Positions 21,132 through 58,583 of a stretch of DNA of 64,000 nt are shown in pieces. The position numbers and the translations under genes are program-made. Location of the stretch: assembly GCA_964552565.1 (NCBI GenBank), contig CAZKGL010000001.1:435061-499060 (forward strand). Direction: 5' to 3'. The notes beneath the pieces are model-generated. The model was not told the DNA's origin. It did not search any database and saw only the letters and a list, made by a program, of their open reading frames with translations. How positions within the stretch are numbered: position 1 is the first letter of the stretch; every line of letters starts with the position of its first letter. This stretch comes from an uncultured Gammaproteobacteria bacterium (GTDB taxonomy: Bacteria > Patescibacteriota > Patescibacteriia > UBA9934).

Positions 21132-21180
21132 GGCGGGGTCCCCGCACCCCGCCGATCCGCCGGCCTGCGGGGAGGCCGGC
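21132..21180. repeat. GC-rich double-hairpin repeat (family 2, intergenic copy; module order A then B)
   Basis: GGCGGGGTCCCCGCACCCCGCC (A) then GCCGGCCTGCGGGGAGGCCGGC (B); both modules recur verbatim at 31187-31245 in swapped order. Confidence 0.6.
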
Positions 21181-29802: not shown

Positions 29803-31559
29803 ACGCGCAAATCAACAATCCGGAGTTGCAACTCACGGCGCCCGTTCCATATATTTACCTCCAGAGTATACGCGACATCGACGCGGTCGCCCATATGGAG
29901 GCGCGCTGCCCATTCGCCGAAGCCAAAGCCGACGAGCTTCCGCGCCTGTCCCGCGCCGTCAAGCGCCGACAACCGCAGGTGGTTCGCCCTGTTCCCCATC
30001 GTTTCGGCCGCAAGAACGCTGACGCCGCACGCGGCAAATATCGGCGCGCGGTTCCCTTCGCCAAACGGCGCGCACCGCGCGACGTCGCCGAGCAACTCCC
30101 ATGTCGCGTGCTCGAGCGGCAGCTCGACGTCGATCGGGAGCGTCTGCGCCGGTCGCGGCCCGCCAAAGAACGTGCGGGCAAACTCCCCGATGCGGGCTTG
30201 GAAGTCCCGGACCAACGACTCGTCCGCGATAGTGAGGCCGCACGCCTGCGGGTGCCCGCCTTTTCTGACGAACATATCGCCGCACGCGTTCATGGCTTCA
30301 ACCAAATGCAAGCCGCCGACGCTCCGCCCGCTGCCCACGTACTGGCCGCCGACGCGGGCGAATGCGAACGCCGGTACCCCGTAGTCGCCGACAAGACGCC
30401 CGGCGATGAGCCCGACGATGCCGGGAAGCCAATCGTCCTTCCACACCACGAGCACAGGAGCAGCCTCAGCAGCGTCGACCATCGCCCGCGCCTCGTCGTA
30501 TGCCTTTGCGAACATTCCCTGCCGTTCACGGTTCAGCGTCTCGAGCGTCGCCGCGGCGCGCTGTGCGGCAACCATGTCGTCTGCAGCAAGCGCGTCGAAC
30601 GCATGCGACGCCGACGTAAGACGTCCGGCGGCGTTCAACCGCGGGCCGATGCGGAAGCCGATCGTCTCCGTGTCGATGGTATCGAGGTCGACGCCTGCGG
30701 AGGCGAGGATGGCGAGCAGTCCCGGACGTTTTGTCTTGCGCAGCACGGTGAGCCCGAAATGTTCGAGGACGCGGTTCTCGCCGAGGAGCGGCATGACGTC
30801 CGTGACGGTCGCGACCGCAACAAGGTCGAGCATCCACTTTTCGTAGCCGACCGGGAATGCCGCGCCGCGTTTCCGCGCTTCGTCGAAGAGCGCACTCGCG
30901 AGTTTGAACGCGACGCCGGTACCGCACAACACTTTGTTCGGGTACTCCTCGCCCGGCGCGAGGGGATGCAACATGATCGCATGCGCGGGAAGGCGATCTC
31001 CCAACTGGTGGTGGTCGCAAATAACGACGTCAACGCCGAGCTCGTGGGCATGGTCGAGCTGGTCCGCGTTCGCAATACCGCAATCGACGGTAAGCAGCAG
31101 CTTCGTGCCCTCGGCCGCCAGCCGCTCCACCGTGTGCATGGCGACGCCGTAGCCGTCCTTCTCCCGGTCGGGCAGGAATACTCCCAGCCGGCCTGCGGGG
31201 AGGCCGGCGATGTACTGTTGATAGGCGGGGTCCCCGCACCCCGCCATTTTTTTAGCAATGTCTTGGAGCGCGCCGTACAGGAGCGCGCTCCCCGACACGC
31301 CGTCGGCGTCATAATCGCCGTGGATCATGATACGCTCGCCGTTTGCAAGCGCGGCGAAGACGCGGTCGACCGCGTGCCGCATCTTCGTGAACAGCCACGG
31401 CGAATGCGTCCCGCGTTCCCAGTCGGGCGATAAGAACGCCGCGCCGTCGTCCGGGCGGACACCGCGGTTCGCAAGCAGTTGCCGAACAATATCGTCCTCC
31501 ACGCGGGGGGCGATGACCCATTGCCGTTCCATGAAGCTGTCGTTACGTCGCGCCTCCAC
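29799..31559 (-). CDS. recJ: Single-stranded-DNA-specific exonuclease RecJ (DHH family)
   Basis: DHH motifs (IHGDYDADGVSG, DHH..., GGGH); start is either GTG at 31559 or ATG at 31532; contains an in-frame family-2 repeat at 31187-31245. Confidence 0.85.
   Translation of the reverse strand: MEARRNDSFMERQWVIAPRVEDDIVRQLLANRGVRPDDGAAFLSPDWERGTHSPWLFTKMRHAVDRVFAALANGERIMIHGDYDADGVSGSALLYGALQDIAKKMAGCGDPAYQQYIAGLPAGRLGVFLPDREKDGYGVAMHTVERLAAEGTKLLLTVDCGIANADQLDHAHELGVDVVICDHHQLGDRLPAHAIMLHPLAPGEEYPNKVLCGTGVAFKLASALFDEARKRGAAFPVGYEKWMLDLVAVATVTDVMPLLGENRVLEHFGLTVLRKTKRPGLLAILASAGVDLDTIDTETIGFRIGPRLNAAGRLTSASHAFDALAADDMVAAQRAAATLETLNRERQGMFAKAYDEARAMVDAAEAAPVLVVWKDDWLPGIVGLIAGRLVGDYGVPAFAFARVGGQYVGSGRSVGGLHLVEAMNACGDMFVRKGGHPQACGLTIADESLVRDFQARIGEFARTFFGGPRPAQTLPIDVELPLEHATWELLGDVARCAPFGEGNRAPIFAACGVSVLAAETMGNRANHLRLSALDGAGQARKLVGFGFGEWAARLHMGDRVDVAYTLEVNIWNGRRELQLRIVDLRV
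31187..31245. repeat. GC-rich double-hairpin repeat (family 2, in-frame copy within recJ; module order B then A)
   Basis: GCCGGCCTGCGGGGAGGCCGGC ... GGCGGGGTCCCCGCACCCCGCC; translated within RecJ as MAGCGDPAYQQYIAGLPAGR. Confidence 0.6.
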
Positions 31560-33132: not shown

Positions 33133-34056
33133 ATGCTCGAGCATGAGGACCACGGCGGGTCGCCAGATTGGACGGCTCCGCAAGAGGCTCGCGAAAAGAA
33201 ACCGTTCGCCCCGGAAGACGGCGGGCAGTATTCGATTGAGGATCCGAACGTTCCGGAACGCTTGAAGCGCGAAGCGACGGAGAAGGCGCTCGGCGCGTGG
33301 CGGAAGCTGCTTGCGGACGTTCCCGACTACGTCGTGTTCGCGAGTACCGCGATGTACCTGCACGGCACCGAGCACGGGATCGACGAGCTCGACGTGCCTC
33401 CGGGGGATTTTGACGTCGCGGTGATGAACAAACAGACGCTCGCCCGTCTTGCGGAACGTTTTGGCAACGTCGACGAGATCACGCTCGACCACGACGGCCA
33501 ACCGCGCCGGTTCGTGGGAGAGGACAGCATGCGCATGAGCGGTACGCTCGCCATCCCGATGGAGTCGGACGGCAAGGAGTTCACGCTCTTGCAGCCGTTC
33601 GAGTTCTACTATAACTCGGTCATCGTCACGCCGCGCGTCCTGCGCACCATCGAGCACGCGCGGGGATTCCGCGTCCTTGGCATGGAAGGACTGCAAGCGC
33701 AGTACGGCAACAACCTCAAACGGGAACTGCAACAGCAGGACGTCATCGACGGCAAGTTCGCGTTCCTCATGGAACACAAAGACGAGCTCGCCGCCGAACT
33801 CGCCCGGCGCGCCAACCACGCCGACGAGGTGCCGCTCGTCCCGTCGCGCCGGTATGCGGAGATTGCGCAGGCGGCCGGGCTCACCCCCGGACAACTCGAA
33901 TCGTTTTTTACGCACGCAGAGGGGCTCGGCGACGCCGACACCCGCATCGCCGCCGAGAAAGCGATCGCAACGCTCCTCAGCGGAAGCAAAACCAAGGTCG
34001 CGAAACGGTGGCACAACGTCGAGCAATTGCAGGACCTTCAGCGCCTTGAGACGTAA
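33133..34056 (+). CDS. Hypothetical protein (307 aa)
   Basis: ATG at 33133; the listed ORF starts upstream at 32989 and overlaps the promoter motif; no confident family. Confidence 0.5.
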   Translation: MLEHEDHGGSPDWTAPQEAREKKPFAPEDGGQYSIEDPNVPERLKREATEKALGAWRKLLADVPDYVVFASTAMYLHGTEHGIDELDVPPGDFDVAVMNKQTLARLAERFGNVDEITLDHDGQPRRFVGEDSMRMSGTLAIPMESDGKEFTLLQPFEFYYNSVIVTPRVLRTIEHARGFRVLGMEGLQAQYGNNLKRELQQQDVIDGKFAFLMEHKDELAAELARRANHADEVPLVPSRRYAEIAQAAGLTPGQLESFFTHAEGLGDADTRIAAEKAIATLLSGSKTKVAKRWHNVEQLQDLQRLET

Positions 34057-34083
34057 CACGACGGGCCCGCGGGCCCGTCGTGT
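34056..34083. terminator. 28-bp perfect palindrome between convergent genes (33133-34056 + and lepA -); bidirectional terminator-like
   Basis: ACACGACGGGCCCGCGGGCCCGTCGTGT. Confidence 0.55.
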
Positions 34084-35873
34084 TATCGTTTGAGCACTTT
34101 GAGATACGCTTCGCTCGGGATACTCACTTTGCCGACGCCCATTTCGAGCATCTTCTTCTTTCCCTTCTTCTGCTTCTCGAGGAGTTTCATCTTGCGCGTC
34201 ACGTCGCCGCCGTACAACGCGCCAGTAACGTCTTTGCGCATCGCGCTGATGCGTTCGCCGGCGACGACCTTCCCGCCGATCGCGGCCTGCAGCTTGATGA
34301 CGAACTGCTGCTTGGGAATCTCGTCCTTCAAGATTTCGAGCACGCGGCGCCCGACGCGCTCGGCTTCGTCGCGGTACACGAGCGTCGCGAACGCGTCGAC
34401 CGGGTCCTCAGCAACGAGGATGTCGAGTTTCACGACATCTGCCTCGCGGTACGCAAAGACCTCATACCCCATCGAAGCGTACCCGCTGGAAATGCTTTTC
34501 AGCTTGTCGTTGAAGTCCACGATGATCGCCGAAAGCGGGAGCTCGTAGTGCAGCACTGCGCGGCCTTCGGACAGGTACTCCGTGTTCTTGTAGATGCCGC
34601 GCCGCTCCTGGCAGAGGCCCATGATGCCGCCGATGTCGTCGGGGCGCGCGATGATGTCGACCTTCGCCCACGGCTCCTCAATCGTATCGATGAAACTCGG
34701 GTCCGGCAGGTCGAGCGCGCTCTTGATGACCTCGTACTCCGTACTGCCGCTGCGGTAGATGCGGTACGCCACGGACGGCAGCGTCACGACGAGCTCGATG
34801 CGGAACTCGCGCGACAGGCGCTCCTTGAGGATTTCAAGGTGAAGCATGCCGAGGAAGCCGCAGCGGAAACCGTAGCCGAGCGCGGGTGAATGTTCCGGCT
34901 CGTACACGAGCGCCGCGTCGTTCAGCTTGAGGCGGTCCATCGCCTCGCGCAGCTGTTGGTACTCGTCGCCGGACGCCGGGAAGATGCCGGCGAACACCAT
35001 CGGCCGTACCTCGCGGTAGCCCTCGAGCACGACCGTGCTCGGGTTGTTGGCAAGCGTGATCGTGTCGCCGACGCGGCAGGCGCGGATGTCCTTGAGGCCG
35101 GTGACGATGTAGCCGATCTGCCCGGTCTCGAGCTCGTCCATCGCCGCGAACTTCGGCTTCAGCGCGCCGAGCTCGAGCACTTCGCCGTCCGCCAGCGTCG
35201 CCATCATCTTCAGCCGGTCGCGTTTACGGAAGGCGCCGTCGACGACGCGGACATACGCGACGACGCCTTTGTAGTCGTCGTATGCCGAATCGAAGATGAG
35301 TGCGCGCGGCGGGGCGGCGGCGTCGCCCTTCGGCGACGGAATGCGCGCGACGATCGCATCGAGCAACTCCATGACGCCTTCGCCGGTCTTGCCGGAGACG
35401 CACAAAATATCCTCGCGGCGGCACCCGATGAGCTTCATGAGTTCTTCCGCCCGCTTCGGGACGTCCGCGGCCGGAAGGTCGATCTTGTTCAAGACGGGGA
35501 TAATCGTCAGGTTCTCTTCAATGGCCAGGTACAGGTTGGCGATGGTCTGCGCCTGTACGCCCTGCGTCGCGTCGACAAGCAATACCGCGCCGTCCACCGC
35601 GGCGAGCGAACGGGAGACTTCGTAGTTGAAGTCGATGTGGCCCGGCGTGTCGATGAGGTTGAGCGTCGTCCCCCGCCATTCCATGCGGGCCGGAGCGAGC
35701 TTGATGGTGATACCGCGCTCCCGCTCGATATCCATGCTGTCGAGAAGCTGATCTTTCATCTGCCGTTTGTCGACCGTGCCGGTAACTTCAAGCAACCGGT
35801 CGGAAAGCGTGCTTTTTCCGTGGTCGATGTGGGCAATGATGCAGAAATTGCGAATGCGCTCCTGGGAAACCAT
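34083..35873 (-). CDS. lepA: Elongation factor 4 (LepA)
   Basis: N-terminal GTPase motifs (AHIDHGKST, DTPGH, NKID) and the LepA-specific C-terminal domain; 596 aa. Confidence 0.9.
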   Translation of the reverse strand: MVSQERIRNFCIIAHIDHGKSTLSDRLLEVTGTVDKRQMKDQLLDSMDIERERGITIKLAPARMEWRGTTLNLIDTPGHIDFNYEVSRSLAAVDGAVLLVDATQGVQAQTIANLYLAIEENLTIIPVLNKIDLPAADVPKRAEELMKLIGCRREDILCVSGKTGEGVMELLDAIVARIPSPKGDAAAPPRALIFDSAYDDYKGVVAYVRVVDGAFRKRDRLKMMATLADGEVLELGALKPKFAAMDELETGQIGYIVTGLKDIRACRVGDTITLANNPSTVVLEGYREVRPMVFAGIFPASGDEYQQLREAMDRLKLNDAALVYEPEHSPALGYGFRCGFLGMLHLEILKERLSREFRIELVVTLPSVAYRIYRSGSTEYEVIKSALDLPDPSFIDTIEEPWAKVDIIARPDDIGGIMGLCQERRGIYKNTEYLSEGRAVLHYELPLSAIIVDFNDKLKSISSGYASMGYEVFAYREADVVKLDILVAEDPVDAFATLVYRDEAERVGRRVLEILKDEIPKQQFVIKLQAAIGGKVVAGERISAMRKDVTGALYGGDVTRKMKLLEKQKKGKKKMLEMGVGKVSIPSEAYLKVLKR

Positions 35874-35932
35874 ACGTTGGCCGGAATGATAGCAGAAAAT
35901 GCCATTTTTTCGCTAGTTTTCCACCTTTTCGC

Positions 35933-35961
35933 TTGACGAAACCCTATTTCTTTGCTAATTT
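35933..35961 (+). promoter_or_regulatory. Putative sigma-70-type promoter upstream of the 36051 gene
   Basis: TTGACG-17 nt-TAATTT; a downstream leader carries AAGGAGG 7 nt before the ATG. Confidence 0.4.
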
Positions 35962-36050
35962 CTAGACTTTTCTCGTGGCTGAGGCAGCCATGGAAAAGCC
36001 CCTCCCCTCAGGGAATCCACCCGAACGCCCCACAAGGAGGCTCGGAACCC

Positions 36051-36389
36051 ATGTCCCAACCCGCCGTGCAGCAGATCGTCGAGGCCGCAGAGCGGCGCAC
36101 CCTCACGATCGAGATGATCGAGGCCGCCGCCCGGAACACCCAGCGCGTGGGCCGCAAGGAGCTCGCCAGCGCGCTGAAGACCGCGTCGCGGTCCATGCCG
36201 ACGCTGGTCGACCAGGCCTGCCGCACCAGCGCCGTCACCAAGGACCGGCTGGGCGCAGAGCTCGTCGAAGAGGTGCGGCGCCACACGGATGCCGGCGACA
36301 TCCCGATCACGAGCGACATGACGTTCGACCGCATCATGCGGATCATCGCCTCACGGCTTCGGGAACCGGGGTACCGGATGACGGGATAG
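36051..36389 (+). CDS. Hypothetical protein (112 aa)
   Basis: Strong RBS (AAGGAGG) before ATG 36051; no recognisable family. Confidence 0.5.
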   Translation: MSQPAVQQIVEAAERRTLTIEMIEAAARNTQRVGRKELASALKTASRSMPTLVDQACRTSAVTKDRLGAELVEEVRRHTDAGDIPITSDMTFDRIMRIIASRLREPGYRMTG

Positions 36390-36407
36390 GGTTCACGGAA
36401 ACACGGA

Positions 36408-36450
36408 CGGCAGGAGCTCCCACTCGGGACTCCTGCCGTTGCTCGTTGTT
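36408..36450. terminator. Terminator-like hairpin between convergent 36051-36389 (+) and mnmA (-)
   Basis: CGGCAGGAG...CTCCTGCCG 9-bp stem followed by TTGCTCGTTGTT. Confidence 0.5.
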
Positions 36451-37564
36451 ATGCAGCAATGACGCCGCTACCGATGAGTTCGTCGCCGTCGTAGAACGCG
36501 ATGAACTGCCCCGGCGCGACGGCGCGCTGCGGCGTGTCGAAGGTGACGACCACCCCCGAACCCCCTCCATGAATGGAGGGGGACTTCGCTCCCTCTTGGC
36601 TACCCCCATTCATGGGGGCTAGGGGGTAGACGACACACGGGGCGAGCGGCTGGCGGTAGCGGATGCGCGCCGCGATTTTTTTGTTTTGCGCGTCCGTGAG
36701 GTTGCCCGGAACGGTCTCCGTCAGGTCCGTCGCAACGAGTGCGGAACGGTACAGCGCCGGATCCTCGTCCCCAACCGCGACCACGACCTCGTTCGTCTCC
36801 GGACGGCGTTCGACGACATAGAGCGGCGTCCCGCCGCCGACACCAAGCCCCTCGCGCTGGCCGATGGTGTAGAACGCGAACCCCTTGTGCGTGCCGAGGA
36901 CCTTTCCGTCCGTCGTCACAATGTTTCCCTCGTGCGGCGCAATGCGTTCGGCAAGGAAATCGACCATGTCGACTTTGCCGACAAAGCAGATACCTTGGCT
37001 GTCCTTTTTCTCCGCGACCGGAAGCGCAAACTTCCGTGCACGCTCGCGCACCTCGGGTTTCGTGTACTCGCCAATCGGGAAGATGACGCGGCGCAACTGC
37101 TCCTGCGTCAACTGACAAAGGAAGTAGCTTTGGTCCTTGTTCGTGTCGACGCCGGCATACAACCGCCCGTCCTTCACGCGGGCGTAGTGCCCGGTTGCCA
37201 CGAAGGCGCACCCCAGCGCGTCCGCTTCGCGGAGGAACAGGTCGAACTTCATGTACTTGTTGCACCGCACGTCCGGATTCGGTGTGCGTCCCGCCCTGTA
37301 CTCGGCGATCATGTACTCGTATACCTTGCGGCGATACTCCTCCTCAAAGTCGAACGTATGGAATGGGATACCGAGCTGCGCTGCGACCCGCATCGCGTCG
37401 CGCCGCTCCGCGCGCCAGCCGCAACTTTCGTCCTCAGTCCCGTCGCTCCAGTTCTTCATGAATCCGCCGACGACCTCATAACCCTGTTCCAACAGCAATG
37501 CCGCGCTGACGCTTGAGTCAACGCCGCCAGAGAGGCCCACAAGGACGCGAGGCTTCGGCTGCAT
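36449..37564 (-). CDS. mnmA: tRNA-specific 2-thiouridylase MnmA
   Basis: PP-loop SGGVDSSV, catalytic Cys region and C-terminal barrel (AVAPGQFIAFYDGDELIGSGVI); contains an in-frame family-1 repeat at 36552-36628. Confidence 0.9.
   Translation of the reverse strand: MQPKPRVLVGLSGGVDSSVSAALLLEQGYEVVGGFMKNWSDGTEDESCGWRAERRDAMRVAAQLGIPFHTFDFEEEYRRKVYEYMIAEYRAGRTPNPDVRCNKYMKFDLFLREADALGCAFVATGHYARVKDGRLYAGVDTNKDQSYFLCQLTQEQLRRVIFPIGEYTKPEVRERARKFALPVAEKKDSQGICFVGKVDMVDFLAERIAPHEGNIVTTDGKVLGTHKGFAFYTIGQREGLGVGGGTPLYVVERRPETNEVVVAVGDEDPALYRSALVATDLTETVPGNLTDAQNKKIAARIRYRQPLAPCVVYPLAPMNGGSQEGAKSPSIHGGGSGVVVTFDTPQRAVAPGQFIAFYDGDELIGSGVIAA
36552..36628. repeat. GC-rich double-hairpin repeat (family 1, in-frame copy within mnmA)
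   Basis: ~90% identical to 40752-40828; hairpins CCCCCTCCA-TGAA-TGGAGGGGG and CTACCCCC..GGGGGTAG; encodes PLAPMNGGSQEGAKSPSIHGGGSGVV. Confidence 0.7.
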
Positions 37565-37576
37565 AAGCGCAGCATG

Positions 37577-38266
37577 CTACCCGACTGTACGGAAGATGTC
37601 GAGCTCTGGCTCTGCGGCAACGGTGATGCGCTCCTTCGTGACCGGTTGGTCAAACTCGAGCGACCGGGCGAACAGCCCGATGGCGCCGCTGTGACCCTCC
37701 CCCTGCCCGAGGGGGAGTTGGAGGGGGTGGGAGGCGCCGTATTTTTTGTCGCCGACGATCGGGGTGCCGAGCGATGCCATGGCCACGCGAATCTGGTGCG
37801 GCCGTCCTGTTGCGGGTTGCACCTCGACAAGCGATCGCCCGTCCTTGGACGCGAGGACGCGGTACGAGAGTTGCGCCCGCTGCGAATCCGGGACCTCGTG
37901 GTCGTACGCGGTCACGAAATTCTTCGCCTCGTCCTTCACCAGCCACTGGATCACATCGCCTGCGGTTTTTTCCGGCCTGCCTTCCACGACCGCCCAATAC
38001 GTCTTGTCGATGCTGTGCGAACGGAACTGTTCAGACAGGCGGCTCGCGCCCTTCGATGTCTTTGCGAACAGCACGACGCCCCCGACCGGCCGGTCGAGGC
38101 GGTGGAGCAGCCCCAAAAACACGTTGCCGGGCTTCGCGTCGCGCGACTTCAGCAATGCTTTTACTTCGTCCATCACATTGACGTCCCCTGTCTCGTCGCC
38201 CTGCGTCAGCATGCCGTGCGGTTTGCGGACGGCAATCAGGTGGTTATCTTCGTAGAGGATGTCCAT
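37577..38266 (-). CDS. RluA-family pseudouridine synthase
   Basis: Catalytic motif HRLDRPVGGVVLFAK plus the C-terminal GDKKYG...LFARSLEF region typical of RluA/RluD-type enzymes. Confidence 0.85.
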   Translation of the reverse strand: MDILYEDNHLIAVRKPHGMLTQGDETGDVNVMDEVKALLKSRDAKPGNVFLGLLHRLDRPVGGVVLFAKTSKGASRLSEQFRSHSIDKTYWAVVEGRPEKTAGDVIQWLVKDEAKNFVTAYDHEVPDSQRAQLSYRVLASKDGRSLVEVQPATGRPHQIRVAMASLGTPIVGDKKYGASHPLQLPLGQGEGHSGAIGLFARSLEFDQPVTKERITVAAEPELDIFRTVG

Positions 38267-38384
38267 ACCGCCGAAAGATTAACATATGGCGGACGGAGGC
38301 GCTACTACGGCGGCGTCCGGATAAATAGCGGCTTCATAATTTTGCGATCGTGAAGTTATGAAGCTTCGCAGCTGTCAGCTACAT

Positions 38385-38957
38385 CTATTGCTCCTTGATG
38401 CCGAACTTCTTGAATATCCCCTCAACCGTCGATTGTTGCGCTTCGGTGTCCGCGGCAAGCACGACCGCCTCGCCGTCGTCCCAATGCAACGTGTAGAGGT
38501 ATTTCGGCCCGCGGTGGGTCGCCGTGTTCCGCTTCGAGTATGTCACGCCCTCCCCCGAAAGCTGCTCGTCCTCGCTTCCCTTCTGCCGCCGCAACTCGCC
38601 CGTCTCTTTGTTGTAGATGTACAGCGTGTCGCGGCTTGCAATCCCGTCCGTTGCGCGGTCCGCAACCTGCGCGCGGCCTACGCCAAACATGCTCCACGAC
38701 CCGACCGCAAGCATGAGGCACAACGCGCCGAATACGATGGCGGCGACCGCCCCCGTTTTCCCATTCGCGACCGCGATGCCGCCGGGGACGATGAAGAGCG
38801 CCCCCAGAATAAGGCACCATGCAATCAGCCACGGCCAGGTCTTCACGGTCGTCTCGTTGAATGGCGCAAATCGGATAATGAGCAGGTCGTCCTGCGCAAG
38901 CACGCCGTACTGCAGCAGTTCGTACAAGGATTCTGCCCCTGCGATCGTTGCAAGCAT
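38385..38957 (-). CDS. Hypothetical membrane protein (190 aa)
   Basis: Two hydrophobic helices (WLIAWCLILGALFIVPGGIAV, AVAAIVFGALCLMLAVG) with a hydrophilic C-terminus; no family. Confidence 0.45.
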   Translation of the reverse strand: MLATIAGAESLYELLQYGVLAQDDLLIIRFAPFNETTVKTWPWLIAWCLILGALFIVPGGIAVANGKTGAVAAIVFGALCLMLAVGSWSMFGVGRAQVADRATDGIASRDTLYIYNKETGELRRQKGSEDEQLSGEGVTYSKRNTATHRGPKYLYTLHWDDGEAVVLAADTEAQQSTVEGIFKKFGIKEQ

Positions 38958-38960
38958 AGA

Positions 38961-39827
38961 TTATGTCCCCCAAGAAGAACGAATGACGATGCCGGTCGGG
39001 AGTTCGAATGCTCGCGGCGTGGTTTCTTTCAAGGTCAACTCGACCGAGGACAACGACTGCGCACACGGCACCGTCGTACGCACGAGATTCTCGATGGCGA
39101 GCGCCGGGAATCCGAGCGAGTACGCGTTCACAAGGAGATGGCCGCGTTCCTTGTTCAGCAATTGCGCACACATGTCGAGCAGCTTCGGCAAGTGCTCTTC
39201 AAACTTCCACAGCTCCCCCTCCGGGCCGCGGCCGAACGCGGGCGGGTCCATGACGATCGCGTCGTACGTATTGCCGCGGCGGACCTCGCGCCCGACGAAC
39301 TTCATCACGTCGTCAGTGATGTACCGCACCGTGCGGTTGCCAAGGCCGGACAACTCGATGTTTTCCTTGACCCACGCGATCGCCGGCTTGCTCCCGTCGA
39401 CATGGACGACCTCGGCGCCCGCCGATGCGCACGCGAGCGTCACGCCGCCGGTGTAGCCAAACAGGTTCAACACCTTCATGCCCGGCTGCACGACGCCGCG
39501 AAGATACTTCCAGTTCGACGCCTGTTCCGGAAATAACCCCGTGTGTTTGAACGACGTCGTGCGGATGCGGAACCGCAGGTCCTCCCACTGCACGGTCCAC
39601 GACGACGGCAACGGACGGATGATATCCCAGTCCCCTTCACGACCGGTCCGCGTGTACGTCGCCCACGCCTTGTTCCAGGCATCGGCGCCAGACTTTCGCC
39701 ACAACGCCTGCGGCTCGGGACGTACCATGACGACGTCCCCATAGCGCTCGCATTTTTCAAAATCGCCCGAGTCGATGAGTTCGACGTCGGACCATGGTGC
39801 GGCCTCCCGTGTGAGCGGCGTCGCCAT
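38961..39827 (-). CDS. Class I SAM-dependent RNA methyltransferase (RlmI/YwbD-like family)
   Basis: SAM-binding motif VLNLFGYTGGVTLACASAGA, acidic motif DVMKF, post-motif DAIVMDPPAFGRG. Confidence 0.7.
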   Translation of the reverse strand: MATPLTREAAPWSDVELIDSGDFEKCERYGDVVMVRPEPQALWRKSGADAWNKAWATYTRTGREGDWDIIRPLPSSWTVQWEDLRFRIRTTSFKHTGLFPEQASNWKYLRGVVQPGMKVLNLFGYTGGVTLACASAGAEVVHVDGSKPAIAWVKENIELSGLGNRTVRYITDDVMKFVGREVRRGNTYDAIVMDPPAFGRGPEGELWKFEEHLPKLLDMCAQLLNKERGHLLVNAYSLGFPALAIENLVRTTVPCAQSLSSVELTLKETTPRAFELPTGIVIRSSWGT

Positions 39828-39828
39828 A

Positions 39829-40638
39829 CTACGCGGTCAAGCGATCCGCAAACACGGTGAGGAGCAGCAGGCCGAACGCAATGCGATACAGCGCAAACAC
39901 ACCGAACCCCGTCTTGCGGATGATAAAAAACAACAAGCGGATGGCAATGACGCCAAAGATGAGCGCGGAGGCGAAACCGATACCGAGCATGCCCCATGCG
40001 AGGTCTGTCGCCCCGGCATCGACAACATCCCACGCCGTCTTAGCGCCTGCGCCAACGATGGCGGGTATTGCGAGGAGGAAGGAAAAGCGCGCCGCCTGCC
40101 CGCGGTCCATGCCGGAGAACAAGCCGATGGTCATGGTCGCGCCCGACCGCGAGGTGCCCGGGATGAGCGCGAAAGCTTGCGCGACGCCAACGGCAACCGC
40201 CTGGCCCCACGTGACATCGTGGACGCGACGCGCGTCGATGGTGCGCTTCTTTGGGACGTAGTCGGCAATGCCAAGCAGGATGCCCCACGCAATGAGCATT
40301 GCCGCGACGACCGGCAGCGTGCGCACTGCGTCCATCATGCTGCCGAGCGCGGCGCCGACGATGACCGCCGGGATGGTCGCCACGAGCAGCTTCACTGCCA
40401 ACGACCGGTCGGCCCGGACCCTTTCGCGGATGCCCTTCACGAGGGCGCCGATTTCGCGGCGCATGGCGATGACGATGGCGAGCAGCGTCGCAAGGTGGAC
40501 CGCCACATCGAACACCAACCCTTGCGCCTCCCAACCGAAGAGCGCCGGAATCGCAAGAAGGTGGCCGGAGCTCGAAATGGGGAGGAACTCGGTGAGGCCC
40601 TGGACCGCGCCAAGCACTGCCGCCTCAAGGAACGTCAT
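39829..40638 (-). CDS. uppP: Undecaprenyl-diphosphate phosphatase
   Basis: UppP/BacA signature (GAVQGLTEFLPISSSGHL...PGTSRSGATM) with 8 TM helices; its start overlaps the stop of the upstream ATPase gene (ATGA). Confidence 0.85.
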   Translation of the reverse strand: MTFLEAAVLGAVQGLTEFLPISSSGHLLAIPALFGWEAQGLVFDVAVHLATLLAIVIAMRREIGALVKGIRERVRADRSLAVKLLVATIPAVIVGAALGSMMDAVRTLPVVAAMLIAWGILLGIADYVPKKRTIDARRVHDVTWGQAVAVGVAQAFALIPGTSRSGATMTIGLFSGMDRGQAARFSFLLAIPAIVGAGAKTAWDVVDAGATDLAWGMLGIGFASALIFGVIAIRLLFFIIRKTGFGVFALYRIAFGLLLLTVFADRLTA

Positions 40639-42530
40639 AGCTCTTCGTCAAACGTTATGCGCTCGCCGGGCATGACCTGCTGCGGCGCGGCGGCTGGCGC
40701 GTCCCCGCCGTTCCCGCGGTTGCGGCGTCGGCGTCGGCGTTTGCGGCCAACCACCCCCGAGCCCCCTCCATCAATGGAGGGGGACCCGGTTCCCTCTTGG
40801 CTACCCCCATTCATGGGGGCGAGGGGGTTGAGCATGTCGCCTGCACGTGGTGCGGCGTCGTCGTGCGCCGGGACGGGTTTCGGCGGTGACGCCTCGGGTT
40901 TCTTTACGGGGGAAAGTGCGGACAACGACATGCTTTCGCCCGCCTCCCGCGCAACAGGCTCACCGTCATGCACCTTCGGCGCCGGCCCGGACTCCTTGCC
41001 CTTCTGGCGTACCTCCTTCTTTTCCTTCCCCTTCTTCCGCTCCTCCATCACGATGGGGTGGCACTCTTCACAGTAAATCGGGCGCGACCGGTCAAGCTCC
41101 ACCGGCAACAAAAACTTCTTCCCGCAGCGGGTGCAGTCATACTCGTGGCTGTACCGCTTCTTTTTGTCCTCCTTCTTTTGCGCCGCGACCGCGGCGAGCG
41201 CTCCGGCCACGTCGACGTTCGGGTCAAACCCCGCCCACGTCGCGACGTGCTCTTCAATCTGCGCCTTGTTGCCGGCGTACCGTTCGCGCGACTGCGCGAT
41301 GACCCGCTCCGCGCTGCCCGTGCGCTGGGCGATGGGCGGCAGCGTCTGCGCCGAAAACGGATGGCTCGTCACGCCGTCAATCATGAGTTTGACGTAGATG
41401 GCGTGCTTCGGGAGGTTGATGATGTCTTCCGGCGTGAACCGCGGCATGAGCTCGTTCTCGAGGAAGACGGCGTCCGGCGAGCCGACGCGGAAGAACACCA
41501 TGCTGCCGACGTTGCCGAACACTGCGTCCCGCACCGCAGTCGACGTCCCCTGCTCGAGCTGGGCGATGTACTGGTGCGCCATGATGAGGTTGAGCCGGTA
41601 CTTGCGCGCTTCAGAGAGCACGCTTGCGAACGATTCGACGGCAAAGTTCTGGAATTCGTCGACGTACAGGTAGAAATCGTTCCGCTCGGACTCCGGGACA
41701 TTCACGCGCTCCATGGCCGACATCTGGATCTTCGTGATGAGCATGCCGCCGAGGAGGCGCATCGCATCTTCACCGACGCGCCCCTTGGAGAGGTTGATGA
41801 TGAAAATCTTCTGGCTGTCCATGATGTCGCGGATGTTGATGGACGACTTCGCCTGCGCGACGATGTTGCGAATGACCGACGACGACAAGAATTGGCCGAT
41901 CTTGTTTTGGATCGGCGCAACCGCCTCGGTCGCGAATTTCGCATCATATTGGGCGAACTCCTGCAGCCAGAACTGTTTGACGATCGGGTCGGTGACGTTC
42001 GTGATGATCTGCGCGCGGTAGTCCTTATCCGACAGCATGCGATTGATGCCGAGCAGCGTGGATCCCGACGTGTCGAGGAGCGCAAGGATGGTGTTATTCA
42101 AAATGTACTCCATGCGCGCCGACCACACGTTCTCCCAGATCTTTTTGAACACCGACATGAGGCTCGACGCGACGAGGTGCTTCATGGTCGGATCCACCGA
42201 CTCGAGGATGTTGAAGCCGATCGGGTAGTCGAGGTCCGACGGATTGAAATACACGACGTCGTTGATGCGCCAGGACGGGATGTAATCGATCAGCTTTTCC
42301 GCGGTGTCGCCGTGCGGATCGACATAACAACACCCGTGGCCGGCGTAGATGTCGGCCAGGATCATGTTCTCGAGCAGCGTCGTCTTGCCCATGCCGGTCT
42401 TTCCGATGACGTACATGTGCCGGCGGCGGTCGTCGGTCTTGACGCCGAACTTGCGCATCGCATTCCGGAAGTTGGTCTTGCCGAAATAGATGACGTCGCT
42501 CTCGTGGTCATGTTCGTAACGCATTGGCAT
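40635..42530 (-). CDS. FtsK/HerA/TraG-superfamily P-loop ATPase resembling type IV coupling proteins (TraD/VirD4-like), soluble, with a C-terminal zinc ribbon and basic tail
   Basis: Walker A VIGKTGMGKTT, YVDPHGD (like the DPKG motif of TraD/VirD4), Walker B FYLYVDEFQNF, Zn ribbon YDCTRCGKKF...IYCEECH, Arg-rich tail; contains an in-frame family-1 repeat. Confidence 0.65.
   Translation of the reverse strand: MPMRYEHDHESDVIYFGKTNFRNAMRKFGVKTDDRRRHMYVIGKTGMGKTTLLENMILADIYAGHGCCYVDPHGDTAEKLIDYIPSWRINDVVYFNPSDLDYPIGFNILESVDPTMKHLVASSLMSVFKKIWENVWSARMEYILNNTILALLDTSGSTLLGINRMLSDKDYRAQIITNVTDPIVKQFWLQEFAQYDAKFATEAVAPIQNKIGQFLSSSVIRNIVAQAKSSINIRDIMDSQKIFIINLSKGRVGEDAMRLLGGMLITKIQMSAMERVNVPESERNDFYLYVDEFQNFAVESFASVLSEARKYRLNLIMAHQYIAQLEQGTSTAVRDAVFGNVGSMVFFRVGSPDAVFLENELMPRFTPEDIINLPKHAIYVKLMIDGVTSHPFSAQTLPPIAQRTGSAERVIAQSRERYAGNKAQIEEHVATWAGFDPNVDVAGALAAVAAQKKEDKKKRYSHEYDCTRCGKKFLLPVELDRSRPIYCEECHPIVMEERKKGKEKKEVRQKGKESGPAPKVHDGEPVAREAGESMSLSALSPVKKPEASPPKPVPAHDDAAPRAGDMLNPLAPMNGGSQEGTGSPSIDGGGSGVVGRKRRRRRRNRGNGGDAPAAAPQQVMPGERITFDEEL
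40752..40828. repeat. GC-rich double-hairpin repeat (family 1, in-frame copy within the T4CP-like ATPase gene)
   Basis: Near-identical to 36552-36628; encodes PLAPMNGGSQEGTGSPSIDGGGSGVV in the C-terminal tail. Confidence 0.7.
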
Positions 42531-42538
42531 AGCGCAAA

Positions 42539-44170
42539 CTACAGCACGGGCAAATTCCCCGGCGCGTCGTCGTCATCACTGATCGGTTCTGCGGCAAGGT
42601 TCAGGCCCGGCGGAAGCGGCGCAGGTTTGCCTGGTTGCGGGACGAACTCGGCGTGCGCAGGGGCGGCATGCGCCGGCGCAGCGGCGTGGGCCGGAGCACG
42701 GGCCGGGGCACCGCCGGTCGGCGCATGCGGCGTCGGGACGGATAACACCCCCGCCTCTTCTTCGCCGACCCCGTACTCCCCGCCCTTCTCCTTCATGAGT
42801 TCCTTCCAGTCCGGGAGATCCGGCGCATCGTCGTCCGCGAACGGCAATGCGAGCGGCGCTTCTGCGCGGCGGGCGCCCGACGTGGCGAGAATCGGGGTCC
42901 GGGCGTCGGCCGGCGGGAAGTGGAACAGCGACGCAAGTTCCTCCGAGTTCAGAATGTACGGCGGCGCGCCGGCACCAAGCTGGCGGCCCTTGTAGCGCTT
43001 CACCAGCCGCGTCATGCGCGCAAAAATCTGCCACTCCAACCAGAAGTAGTCGTCCTTCGGCGTGGCCGGGTCGTGCATGCCGAACTTGTTCATGTTCAGG
43101 TGCGCGAACGGATGGAACATGCCCTTGATGACCGACGCAATGAGCGGCTTGCGGTACGTCTCGTGCACCGCGCAGTACACCACGCGGATCTTTGTATACC
43201 ACCCGAGCTTGCTGATCTTCTCCGCAATGGCGTCCGAAACACTGCGCTCGGTCGGCGTCATCTTGAACATGCGGAAATCGTCCGCCTTCTTCTCTTCGTG
43301 GCCGCCCTCGCCCATAAGGTCCAGCCCGGCGGTCTGCTTCAGCACCTCGTTCGGCAACCAAGCAACGCCGCCCATGATCTGCGACGTCATGCTCGGCGCG
43401 TGCTTCTCCTCCTTGCCCATGAGCTTGTTGAGGTACTTCTCGCCCTCCTTCGCCCAGTCCTGTTCGTCCGGCTGTTGGATGATGATCTGCACCCACAAGT
43501 GCTCGCCCTTCTGCATCTTGCCCATGATCTCGATGACGTTGAGGAGCGGATCCTTAAACCGCATGTCCTTTTCGCCAAGATGCTCAAAATCCGCGTACGT
43601 ACGGATCGGGTAGAACATCGGCTTGCTGAGCTTCATTTCGCTGCCGAAGACGAGGTGCGTGTCGTTCGGATACTTGTCCGGGATGCGGTCGACGTAGTCC
43701 TCGACCTCCATGATCTGCGCCTCGGGGTACTGTGCGTAGAGCGCGGCCTCGACAAGATCGCGGTATTTCTCCGGCGTACGGATGTAGAACTTCACGTCGC
43801 CTTCGCTGCCCACGATCTCGAAGCTGAAAAATGCCTGGAACTTGCCGAGAAGATGCGCCTCCTTCCACGTAATCGCCGACTTTGAGCCCGCGATGTTGTT
43901 GAAGAAGTTCTCCATGCCCTTCGGCGTGTTGATGGCGCCTTGGGGGATGCTGATGTTGAGGAGCACCCAGTCGATATGCGCAAGGTACTGCCCTTGCTTG
44001 TAGTCGACCCATACTTCCGTGAAGCCCCAGATGAGGACGCCGAAAATAGGGATCCACCCGAACACGAGCAGTGCGTGCGACGCCATCTCGAAGACCGGCG
44101 TGGTCGCGATGTAGTGATCGACGGCCGGTGGCAGGTTGAATGCGATGCCGAGCATAATTGCTCGCATCAT
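42539..44170 (-). CDS. Membrane protein partner of the T4CP-like ATPase (N-terminal TM helices plus a large soluble domain and a Pro/Ala-rich acidic tail)
   Basis: ATG at 44168-44170 (the listed ORF starts at an upstream TTG); TM segments (IMLGIAFNLPP, HALLVFGWIPIFGVLIWGF); ends 8 nt before the ATPase gene. Confidence 0.55.
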   Translation of the reverse strand: MMRAIMLGIAFNLPPAVDHYIATTPVFEMASHALLVFGWIPIFGVLIWGFTEVWVDYKQGQYLAHIDWVLLNISIPQGAINTPKGMENFFNNIAGSKSAITWKEAHLLGKFQAFFSFEIVGSEGDVKFYIRTPEKYRDLVEAALYAQYPEAQIMEVEDYVDRIPDKYPNDTHLVFGSEMKLSKPMFYPIRTYADFEHLGEKDMRFKDPLLNVIEIMGKMQKGEHLWVQIIIQQPDEQDWAKEGEKYLNKLMGKEEKHAPSMTSQIMGGVAWLPNEVLKQTAGLDLMGEGGHEEKKADDFRMFKMTPTERSVSDAIAEKISKLGWYTKIRVVYCAVHETYRKPLIASVIKGMFHPFAHLNMNKFGMHDPATPKDDYFWLEWQIFARMTRLVKRYKGRQLGAGAPPYILNSEELASLFHFPPADARTPILATSGARRAEAPLALPFADDDAPDLPDWKELMKEKGGEYGVGEEEAGVLSVPTPHAPTGGAPARAPAHAAAPAHAAPAHAEFVPQPGKPAPLPPGLNLAAEPISDDDDAPGNLPVL

Positions 44171-44246
44171 AACACAAACACACCTTGCTGTGGAAACACA
44201 CAAAAAACCATCCCGCGCACTGCCGCGCAGGACGGTTTCTTGTTCG

Positions 44247-45149
44247 TTACTTCTTTCCCTTCCCCCAGTGCTCGCTCATGACGAGGAGCGGGCTGGCGAG
44301 GAAGATGGACGAGTACGCACCGGCGGCGATACCGGCAAGGAGCGTCATGGCGAACGGTCGCGTCGACTCGCCGCCGAACACGACGATCGCGAGGACCGGC
44401 AGGAGCGTCGACAGCGTGGTGTTAATGGAGCGCGCGAGCGTTTCGTTGATGCTCTGGTTCACCGTTTCGCCGAAACTCGCGTGCCTGTGGCGGTTGCGGT
44501 ACAGGTTTTCGCGGGTGCGGTCGAACACCACGATGGTGTCGTTAATCGAGTAACCGAGGATGGTGAGGAGCGCGGCGACGAACGCGGTGTCGGCCTGGAA
44601 TCCGTAGATTTTGCCAAGGACCGCGAAGATGCCGAGCGGGATGATGACATCGTGGAACGCGCTGATGACCGTAATGACGCCGTACTTCCAGGACTCGACC
44701 GGCTGCGAGACGCGACGGAAGGCCCACGCGATATAGACCGCGATAAGGAGCAGGACGAGGATCATCGCGAACGTCGCCTTTTCCTTGAGCTCCTCACCCA
44801 CGACCGGGCCGACGGAATCGAAACGCTGTTCCTCGAGCTCGCCGAAACGCGTGCGGAGCGCGGCGAGGACCGCCTGGTGTTCTTCCTCGGTGACCGGACG
44901 GACACGGATCAGCGTGGAGCCGTCGTCGGCCTGCTGGATGACCGGTTCGTAACCGAGTTCGGCGACCGCCGCACGGACGTCTTCCTGCACCGGAACGGAA
45001 GTGAATTTCACCGACATGAGCGAGCCGCCGGTGAAGTCGATACCCGGGTTCACGCCGAAGCCGATGATTGCCGCGAGCGCAAGGACGACGATCGTCCCGG
45101 ACATCGCGAGCCAGACCTTGGAATGTGTGACGATGGAGAGGTTGGCCAT
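44247..45149 (-). CDS. secF: Protein translocase subunit SecF
   Basis: SecF periplasmic motif (GIDFTGGSL) and six-TM core; immediately downstream of secD. Confidence 0.85.
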   Translation of the reverse strand: MANLSIVTHSKVWLAMSGTIVVLALAAIIGFGVNPGIDFTGGSLMSVKFTSVPVQEDVRAAVAELGYEPVIQQADDGSTLIRVRPVTEEEHQAVLAALRTRFGELEEQRFDSVGPVVGEELKEKATFAMILVLLLIAVYIAWAFRRVSQPVESWKYGVITVISAFHDVIIPLGIFAVLGKIYGFQADTAFVAALLTILGYSINDTIVVFDRTRENLYRNRHRHASFGETVNQSINETLARSINTTLSTLLPVLAIVVFGGESTRPFAMTLLAGIAAGAYSSIFLASPLLVMSEHWGKGKK

Positions 45150-53936: not shown

Positions 53937-54090
53937 GCATCTACAAAAAATGTCCGGCCGGACAAAAAGTGTAGACGGGGGGCGTTACACTTTTTTCACG
54001 ATCGTCGATTTTGTGTAACGCTCCTGGTAACCAAAACCTCACGGCCGTAAAAAATTGATATCCATCACAAAACCGCCCTTGCGAGCGGTT
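53937..54090. repeat. 154-bp direct repeat, copy 1 (identical to 55542-55695)
   Basis: Perfect 154/154 identity; contains the palindrome TGTCCGGCCGGACA and a terminator-like hairpin AAAACCGCCC-TTGCGA-GCGGTT at its high-coordinate end. Confidence 0.9.
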
Positions 54091-54098
54091 CTGCGGGG

Positions 54099-54743
54099 CT
54101 ATTCAAGTCGCGCAGTCGTGATAAGCCCTTCAAGTGTAGCGAAGACGGCAGCCTCGTCGACCGCCTGGATACTGCCGGGATCCCAGTTGCCGATGTTGCC
54201 GGTCGCGACGATCGCCGCAAGCTCAACGCAATTCCCATCGTGCATTGCGTGGTACACCCGCCTTTCAAAACTCGTACCCGCAGCGGCTTCTCCAATAACC
54301 CCGTAATACCATGTAACGCCGCCGATCTCTTTCGTTTCCGTAAGCTCGACGGTGCCCGTGCCATAGCGAGCGAGGTTGCACGACAAAGCCGTATCGTTTT
54401 CGCTTATCCTACTAAATGATGAAAGATGCACCCAGGCGCCAAACAGGTTGGTGCCGTCATACGGCGCCTCATCAAGAAGGAACGTCGAGCGCACGGGGGG
54501 TGGGTTGCCGTTACTGCTCAGCATGTCGATGAGTGCGCTTCCCGTCTGATAGTCGGAAGCTTCGTCGGCAGCAACGGTAAATTCGTCTGGGTCGTATGCG
54601 AGCGTCAGGCCGAGCGTGCTATCGGAGAACGTCACGCTGCTTGCTTCCGAGGAGGAGGGGGCGGGACGTAAGGCTACGATCGCCAGAAAGACGGCCGCAC
54701 AGATCAATCCGCCCATGAGTATCGCGCGTGATGCCACGGTCAT
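54099..54743 (-). CDS. Hypothetical secreted/membrane-anchored protein (214 aa)
   Basis: N-terminal TM/signal segment (ILMGGLICAAVFLAIVAL); lies within the repeat-bracketed cassette. Confidence 0.5.
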   Translation of the reverse strand: MTVASRAILMGGLICAAVFLAIVALRPAPSSSEASSVTFSDSTLGLTLAYDPDEFTVAADEASDYQTGSALIDMLSSNGNPPPVRSTFLLDEAPYDGTNLFGAWVHLSSFSRISENDTALSCNLARYGTGTVELTETKEIGGVTWYYGVIGEAAAGTSFERRVYHAMHDGNCVELAAIVATGNIGNWDPGSIQAVDEAAVFATLEGLITTARLE

Positions 54744-55541: not shown

Positions 55542-55695
55542 GCATCTACAAAAAATGTCCGGCCGGACAAAAAGTGTAGACGGGGGGCGTTACACTTTTT
55601 TCACGATCGTCGATTTTGTGTAACGCTCCTGGTAACCAAAACCTCACGGCCGTAAAAAATTGATATCCATCACAAAACCGCCCTTGCGAGCGGTT
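55542..55695. repeat. 154-bp direct repeat, copy 2 (identical to 53937-54090); immediately downstream of secA
   Basis: Perfect identity to copy 1; its terminal hairpin also serves as the secA terminator (followed by TTTTG). Confidence 0.9.
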
Positions 55696-55704
55696 TTGTG
55701 CGCG

Positions 55705-58538: not shown

Positions 58539-58578
58539 GCCCCCGAACCACCCCTTGCCCCTCCTTGGGAAGGAGGGG
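58539..58578. repeat. Partial copy of the family-1 GC-rich hairpin element (intergenic, murC/secA)
   Basis: GCCCCCGAACCACCCCTTGCCCCTCCTTGGGAAGGAGGGG: shares the 5' CCCCCGAACC and a first hairpin of the CCCC(C)TCC...GGAGGGG type with 36552 and 40752. Confidence 0.4.
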
Positions 58579-58583
58579 AAATG

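Follow-up and report, generated by a model that had tools for sequence, protein, structure and literature searches.

A short palindromic repeat occurs twice on the minus strand of the window analysed here (64,000 nucleotides of contig CAZKGL010000001.1, with positions counted from the first letter), once in a gene for a type IV coupling protein (T4CP)-like ATPase and once in mnmA, and its layout resembles that of a dimer of repetitive extragenic palindromic (REP) sequences. The 64-kb window has a G+C content of 62% and belongs to Candidatus Uhrbacteria; the same MnmA is encoded in assembly GCA_016177675.1 and on an 838,942-bp contig. The features discussed are collected in Table 1.

Table 1. 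Repeat copies, their hairpins, host genes and single related units in the window
Feature	Position	Strand	Basis or remark
Element in the C-terminal tail of the T4CP-like ATPase; 81-82 nt double hairpin, REP-dimer-like	40750..40831	-	Repeat search; covariance-model matches 40749-40786 (+) and 40801-40835 (-)
Hairpin A of the T4CP copy, CCCCCTCCAT-CA-ATGGAGGGGG, 10-bp perfect stem	40762..40783		Box ACCACCCCC and GAG ahead of it on the + strand (40750-40761)
Hairpin B of the T4CP copy, CCCCCAT-TC-ATGGGGG, 7-bp perfect stem	40804..40819		Followed by CGA and box GGGGGTTGA on the + strand (40820-40831)
Host gene, 631-aa T4CP-like (TrwB/TraG/VirD4-type) ATPase	40635..42530	-	Pfam TrwB_AAD_bind, T4SS-DNA_transf, TraG-D_C
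Sister copy in frame in mnmA, 90% identical, residues 313-339	36549..36630	-	Loop between two beta-strands of the C-terminal barrel
Host gene, tRNA 2-thiouridine(34) synthase MnmA	36449..37564	-	Relatives at 63-77% identity
Single superfamily unit, in frame in an RluA-like pseudouridine synthase gene: box CCCACCCCCTCC, AA, hairpin CTCCCCCT-CGGGC-AGGGGGAG; encodes SHPLQLPLGQGEGHS	37695..37731	-	Covariance model E=0.016, not in training set
Single superfamily unit, intergenic between murC-like and secA: box AACCACCCC, TTG, hairpin CCCCTCCTT-GGG-AAGGAGGGG	58544..58581	+	Covariance model E=0.039, not in training set

The two copies form a gap-free direct repeat of 82 nt with unrelated flanks, and a 77-nt probe allowing up to 3 mismatches found no match in 100 dinucleotide-preserving shuffles of the sequence. 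A preliminary description of this DNA had proposed that a second in-frame copy of the mnmA repeat, which it called family 1, lies in the T4CP-like gene with the same orientation and frame, in the C-terminal tail just before an Arg-rich stretch. The copy is real and each of these statements was borne out, while the limits given for it (40752-40828) fall 2-3 nt short of the shared segment at each end. Both copies are also found in a second public record, contig JACOUU010000015.1 of GCA_016177675.1 (locus L001).

The element measures 81 nt, or 27 codons, and both copies lie inside long open reading frames (ORFs). The T4CP copy encodes NPLAPMNGGSQEGTGSPSIDGGGSGVV (residues 568-594), directly followed by GRKRRRRRR, and the MnmA copy encodes YPLAPMNGGSQEGAKSPSIHGGGSGVV. 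In the coding orientation, the frame used is the only one free of stops in both copies, the other two frames containing stop codons. Since a surviving gene can therefore read the element in one frame only, the shared frame follows from the shared orientation and is not an independent coincidence. The T4CP-like ATPase additionally gave a weak match to a treble-clef zinc finger, and its tail is basic and variable at the C-terminus.

Structure of the repeat

Read along the plus strand, the element consists of box ACCACCCCC, GAA or GAG, hairpin A, a linker of ~17 nt, hairpin B, CTA or CGA, and box GGGGGT(A/T)GA. Hairpin A has a perfect 10-bp stem and a 2-nt loop (CCCCCTCCAT-NN-ATGGAGGGGG), and hairpin B a perfect 7-bp stem and a loop of the same size (CCCCCAT-NN-ATGGGGG). 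When reverse-complemented, the right half follows the plan of the left half, that is, a box, 3 nt and a hairpin with its C arm first; the element is thus made of two inverted units with their boxes facing outward. The basic unit can be described as a GC-rich hairpin whose C-rich arm comes first, preceded by a C-rich box (CCACCCCC, CCTCCCCC or CTACCCCC) and a spacer of 2-4 nt. Both strands of the segment fold better than shuffled sequences, with z values from -2.5 to -5.3. No Rfam family was found for the element at gathering thresholds, and permissive thresholds gave chance-level matches only.

The copies in the window differ at 8 nucleotides. The 46 positions of the stems and boxes contain none of these (P ~8.5e-4 if sites are hit evenly), all 8 lying in the loops, the linker or the spacers. 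Three of the 8 change amino acids, and 23 of the 27 residues are identical between the copies.

Conservation of the DNA and of the encoded peptide

The two window copies are 90% identical, while the window copy in mnmA and the copy at the same position in mnmA of locus L013 share 67.5%; the latter copy and an intergenic one at locus L017 share 83%. The hairpin CCCCTCCAT..ATGGAGGGG is read as SPPFMEG in mnmA of L013 versus SPSIHGGG in the window, the DNA hairpin being kept. The existence of the intergenic L017 copy, the use of different reading frames in L013 and L024, and the absence of stem or box changes between the window copies together show that conservation lies in the DNA and not in the peptide. 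This agrees with the earlier proposal that the 25-aa peptide shared by the two proteins arises from a nucleotide-level repeat rather than from protein-domain homology.

Stem variation was followed across 20 units from several genomes. The 13-pair stem was paired in 86% of cases; three positions alternate between C-G and U-A pairs, with G-U as a further state at one of the three, and show no unpaired cell. In this set 27 cells had changed on both sides, compared to 9.2 +/- 2.4 in shuffles, and slid controls scored lower. As the units had been picked by at least 6 perfect pairs or by exact hairpin patterns, the pairing of the inner stem is partly built in and the covariation signal inflated. What can safely be concluded is narrower: family members differ in their stems, and each stem is self-complementary. 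The stems of the two window copies are identical, so no compensatory change can be scored between them; the hairpin-preserving changes that the preliminary description proposed to test for appear only across the wider family, with the reservation that this set was chosen in part for perfect stems.

Host sites in related genomes

The 120 best relatives of the window MnmA are 63-77% identical to it and differ in length. In an alignment of 35 of them, the main length-variable site was the loop between RYRQPLAxC and V.F..PQRA, in which the element lies. This loop holds a full related dimer in L013 (SSSPINGGENSGETSPPFMEGSGEV), a dimer of another subtype in L023, the hairpin-B unit only in L016 and L014, a different unit in L024 (LPLTEGESEGEL), a second copy of which sits in another loop of mnmA, and an unrelated palindrome in L019 (CTCACGTCACTCG/CGAGTGACGTGAG). 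In L018 and L020 it is short and devoid of hairpins. L018, the closest mnmA relative, has ATGGAGGAAGGGGGC at the insertion site, which could be a remnant of the element. The presence of the unrelated palindrome in L019 suggests that different palindromic elements colonised the loop independently. The mnmA loop is an insertion hot spot.

Two of these genes deserve a closer description. The mnmA ortholog at L019 10001-11095 (ERZ27280297) carries a perfect 13-bp palindrome in frame, in the same loop as the family-1 element. In L024, a related Uhrbacteria-like genome, the hairpin-plus-G-box unit encoding LPL[IT]EGESEGEL is found at 10418-10455 and at 11008-11040, in two loops of the same mnmA.

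For the window MnmA, an AlphaFold2 model built on the 35-sequence alignment reached a mean pLDDT (predicted local distance difference test) of 81 and a pTM (predicted template modelling score) of 0.82. The insert was modelled as a loop between beta-strands 308-314 and 338-347, with pLDDT values below 50 at residues 319-334.

All four T4CP orthologs, from L019-L022 (70-76% identity), are without the hairpin element, and each has an unconserved spacer of similar length ahead of RKRKRRRR. In the rluA-like gene, the window and L024 (9834-9870) carry different variants of the unit at the same site, with their hairpins read in different frames, and the 6 other orthologs in the alignment are without it; the site falls in a stretch that is variable between orthologs. 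Hence host genes do exist with and without the insert, a point raised in the preliminary description, the empty cases being the four T4CP orthologs and mnmA of L018 and L020.

The surrounding gene order is shared by Uhrbacteria-like genomes, namely the window (34000-44300), L016, L019-L022 and L024: SecDF, DUF8128, the T4CP-like ATPase, BacA, a SAM methyltransferase, RluA, MnmA and LepA, followed by RecJ, RNase H and PilM. In every case the gene for the T4CP-like ATPase comes after that for DUF8128, and the CxxC...CxxC zinc finger of the ATPase and the poly-Arg motif of its tail are kept.

Further copies in the window and elsewhere

At up to 3 mismatches per hairpin, the T4CP and mnmA copies were the only full ones in the window. 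A covariance model was built from the 20 units and run on the window with filters off. It matched exactly the four units of the two dimers and two single units outside its training set (Table 1), giving 6 units in 64 kb, of which 5 are intragenic. The same model detected 3 units in the 21 kb of L024 and none in five related loci, L018-L022 (68 kb in total).

In the window, each of the three intragenic units or dimers ends 97-117 nt before the stop codon of its own gene. This placement does not hold in L012 or L024, and it may be a coincidence or an effect of the tolerance of C-terminal regions.

When hairpin A was searched for in a collection of one genome per species, which does not contain the source genome, 11 loci were obtained and the full element was present at none of them. 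They included intergenic single units in Kaiserbacteria (L006) and Uhrbacteria (L009), and units with the same G box in metagenome-assembled genomes (MAGs) of Gammaproteobacteria (L004, L005, L007 and L012). In L012, a Competibacteraceae MAG, seven units occur within 6 kb, all in frame in a 1350-aa Eco57I/MmeI-type methylase ORF; they encode peptides such as SPLNPLSINGEG...SSPPSPFMEKGDGG, a dimer closely resembling that of the window. This ORF (829-4881 of L012, REEE01000264.1) also contains a DUF559 (Vsr-like endonuclease) domain at residues 314-407, between two units, which suggests that several kinds of insertion are tolerated in one gene.

With the two-hairpin pattern, a scan of metagenomes yielded a single full element, the groundwater copy L017. 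L013 was not recovered, so the collection is incomplete for this purpose. The L017 copy is intergenic and flanked by a stop codon on one side and a terminator on the other, and hence is not translated. Viral contigs searched with two patterns gave no matches. Additional copies are thus present both in the window and in other genomes, including genomes of another phylum.

Comparison with known repeat families

REP doublets forming hairpins (REPINs) are REP dimers in inverted orientation (Bertels & Rainey 2011, PMC3116915). More than half of intragenic REPs are dimers or grouped repeats; they encode 20-30 aa, and their hosts include pseudouridine-synthase, tRNA-synthetase, tRNA-modification and DNA-repair genes (Di Nocera et al. 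2013, PMC3733652). REPs are imperfect 20-40 nt palindromes with a GC-rich stem-loop, and the present element resembles them in several respects. It combines a short unpaired tag with GC-rich stems and small loops, its stems of 10 and 7 bp falling within the 7-13 bp of REPs, and its inverted units form a larger foldable dimer in which the covariance model matches units A and B on opposite strands. The size of its in-gene dimers, the host functions and the patchy distribution between related genomes are likewise those of REPs.

It differs from REPs in its tag. Two REP superfamilies are defined by GTAG and CGTC tags, and two families of Rickettsia palindromic elements (RPEs), RPE-4 and RPE-6, are CGTC-tagged (PMC3733652), whereas the tag here is a C5/G5 box (CCACCCCC, CCTCCCCC). 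A GTAG does stand beside hairpin B, but on the wrong side (3' on the coding strand) and in no copies other than those of the window, L013, L016 and L017 lacking it; CGTC flanks only the mnmA copy, so that neither was retained as a tag. Further differences are that no REP-associated tyrosine transposase (RAYT) was found by tblastn in 263 kb, a weak test; that 5 of the 6 window units are intragenic, REPs being mostly extragenic; and that the host is a bacterium of the candidate phyla radiation (CPR), with a contig of ~0.84 Mb.

RPEs (Ogata et al. 2000) are described as ~150 bp long, found in Rickettsia and inserted in frame (review PMC10969869). The likeness here is that of dispersed palindromes in frame in unrelated housekeeping genes of a reduced genome, in our case mnmA, the T4CP-like gene and the rluA-like gene. 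Family-specific peptides are encoded at sites where the fold tolerates them, and the transposition mechanism of RPEs is likewise obscure. Such tolerance is apparent at all three sites: the beta-hairpin loop of MnmA has pLDDT values below 50, the T4CP tail spacer is unconserved, and the rluA stretch is variable. In contrast to RPEs, the element is 81 nt long, very GC-rich and found in another phylum, and has no known relation to them in sequence; it works like an RPE and is not claimed as a member of RPE-1 to RPE-10.

MITEs (miniature transposable elements with inverted repeats) and the IS200/IS605-derived palindrome-associated transposable elements (PATEs) were also considered, where IS stands for insertion sequence. 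Like them, the element is short and non-autonomous, with inverted symmetry, two similar subterminal hairpins and no consistent target duplication; the lack of such a duplication is what single-strand transposition of the IS200/IS605 type leads one to expect. As a MITE it was rejected: pairing of the outer boxes is limited to the CCCCC/GGGGG run, the ends show no consistent direct repeat, and no parent IS is present in the DNA examined. Nor was a TnpA, a defined cleavage site, a target motif, or a TA or other target-site duplication identified, so that membership of the PATE/MITE group cannot be claimed.

The element is best classed as a new family within a known kind, working like a REP dimer or an RPE. 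In the full-text literature searched, there was no description of REP-like or in-frame palindromic repeats in Patescibacteria/CPR, a result that holds for that literature only, and the family is apparently undescribed so far in CPR bacteria.

Origin and nature of the element

The conservation at the DNA level, the occurrence of copies both in and between genes, the uneven numbers of units and the presence of several palindromes in one loop all point to a REP-dimer- or RPE-like repeat. We consider that the element is probably a palindromic repeat of the REP/REPIN or RPE kind that is selfish or near-neutral, non-coding by origin and translated as a Pro/Gly/Ser-rich disordered loop wherever a protein tolerates it. 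Our model is the following. An 81-nt pair of inverted units, boxes outward around the ~17-nt linker, would have spread or been homogenised at the DNA level, either by a transposase acting in trans or by recombination or template switching between copies. An intragenic copy would survive only if its length keeps the frame, the frame used is free of stops and the site is a surface loop or a disordered tail. The product would be a flexible, hydrophilic loop tolerated by the host at MnmA 313-339 and in the T4CP-like tail 568-594, as C runs are read as Pro/Ser and G runs as Gly. Ribosomal bypass and intron-like removal were set aside as not needed, the frame used being open and the length a multiple of three.

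Several observations weigh against this model. When the window and 22 loci, together 263 kb, were searched by tblastn with IS200 TnpA and RAYT (YafM) queries, no transposase was found below E=1, a weak test that covers about 8% of the genome. There was no consistent target-site duplication by eye or in alignments: GTCGTC flanks the mnmA copy and TCTG the L013 copy, with nothing comparable at the T4CP copy. No filled/empty polymorphism was seen between near-identical genomes, the nearest empty sites being orthologs at 70-81% protein identity, and only two full copies are present within 64 kb. The similar-length spacer of the T4CP orthologs suggests that the element may have replaced tail sequence there instead of simply being added. 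Finally, related units in mnmA and rluA share position, orientation and frame in several lineages, which could reflect old common insertions and not repeated insertion. Without transposase, consistent duplication or filled/empty polymorphism, transposition is inseparable from gene conversion among old insertions. The preliminary description had spoken of a mobile or recombining element: the patchy distribution and the further copies fit this wording, and the two modes are not yet distinguishable.

The shared positions keep alive the idea that single insertions took place long ago in mnmA, rluA and the T4CP tail of an ancestor and no longer transpose, with gene conversion keeping the copies within a genome alike and many lineages having deleted or eroded theirs. 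Indeed, the mnmA units of the window, L013, L014, L016 and L023 agree in codon position, orientation and initial frame, as do the rluA units of the window and L024; the sequence left in L018 mnmA could be such a remnant, copies within a genome are more alike than same-position copies across genomes, and neither a transposase nor a target duplication came to light. We regard this history as possible but unlikely, because the unrelated palindrome in L019 and the different unit of L024, with its second-loop copy, point to repeated new arrivals, because intergenic copies exist (L017 and window 58544-58581), because the family occurs in Gammaproteobacteria MAGs as well as in CPR, and because five related loci are without any unit.

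The invariance of stems and boxes between copies whose loops and linker vary would also be expected if the hairpins were selected for an action on mRNA or DNA, such as a block to 3'-exonucleases, a processing site, a translational pause or a protein-binding site, the peptide being a by-product. Most REPs are reported to lie downstream of coding regions, and many of them may function at the RNA level (PMC3733652). The excess of two-sided changes in stems that differ among members yet remain self-complementary, and the position of all three intragenic window units about 100 nt upstream of a stop codon, are consistent with such a role. Yet close relatives are without the element in all three genes, the units of the L012 methylase and of L024 mnmA are spread along their ORFs and not near the 3' end, the covariation set required perfect stems, Rfam gave no match, and invariant stems are equally expected for recent selfish copies. 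A selected nucleic-acid element is thus improbable in our view.

A bolder form of this idea would make the C5-box units one family common to CPR episymbionts (Uhrbacteria, Kaiserbacteria) and Gammaproteobacteria, which repeatedly targets mnmA and rluA loops and whose hairpins are kept by selection for an intragenic task, for example stabilising or processing the mRNA ~100 nt before stops. Though still less probable, it would, if true, amount to a site-preferring, cross-phylum and functionally retained intragenic repeat system in ultra-small genomes.

That the Pro/Gly/Ser-rich 27-mer is instead a selected linker or interaction motif shuffled between proteins seems very improbable. The common frame and the 23 of 27 identical residues would fit a protein-level module, but the four residue differences include the non-conservative Y/N, AK/TG and H/D with no change in the stems, other frames are used for the same hairpin elsewhere, intergenic copies exist and the insert is modelled as a low-confidence loop. 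Six-frame peptide word searches over 5.8 billion proteins returned 44 and 477 word candidates, none of which scored; the window's own MnmA went unscored too, so this result says little. An assembly or binning artefact, through a chimeric join or a mis-assembled repeat, is a negligible prospect even for a metagenome-assembled genome with GC-rich hairpins that are hard to sequence, given that long ORFs stay open through both copies, that both recur in L001 and that related elements occupy the same mnmA loop in contigs of unrelated samples (JGI, Logan, ENA).

Significance

Because REPs inside genes and RPEs have been documented before, the points below alter nothing in principle. Genomes of CPR bacteria (Patescibacteria) are small, gene-dense and usually considered poor in repeats. 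A Uhrbacteria genome of ~0.84 Mb here holds palindromic repeats mostly inside conserved housekeeping genes, as RPEs are in Rickettsia, and the scarcity of intergenic space in reduced genomes may push selfish palindromes into permissive protein loops. Short length-variable loops of CPR proteins can stem from DNA-level hairpin elements and not from protein adaptation, a point to bear in mind when such proteins are aligned, placed in phylogenies or modelled structurally. The mnmA loop would be a handy marker of element gain and loss, and the recurrence of units in other phyla a handle for finding the enzyme that moves them.

Other repeats in the window

A second, unrelated hairpin family is present at 21132-21180 and 31187-31245, with the hairpins GGCGGGGT-CCCCGC-ACCCCGCC and GCCGGCCT-GCGGGG-AGGCCGGC. 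Each place has the two hairpins, in the same + strand orientation but with their order swapped and the spacing changed. The place at 21132-21180 lies between genes, just downstream of gatA; that at 31187-31245 is in frame in recJ (..KKMAGCGDPAYQQYIAGLPAGRL..), and the loop there exceeds that of the L018 ortholog by ~14 residues.

A relatively AT-rich direct repeat of 157 nt is found at 53937-54093 and 55542-55698, 1605 bp apart and 99% identical. It contains internal palindromes (TACAAAAAATGTCCGGCCGGACAAAAAGTGTA) and a terminator-like hairpin, and its copies flank a 214-aa ORF (54099-54743, minus strand). It may be an intergenic or regulatory region that was duplicated, or represent the termini of a small inserted element.

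Lastly, segments of 274 nt and 119 nt are repeated 2506 bp apart at 9531-9933 and 12037-12439, with 79-85% identity. Near 10328-10721 and 11953-12024 there are shorter internal repeats, and the genes concerned look paralogous or internally repetitive.

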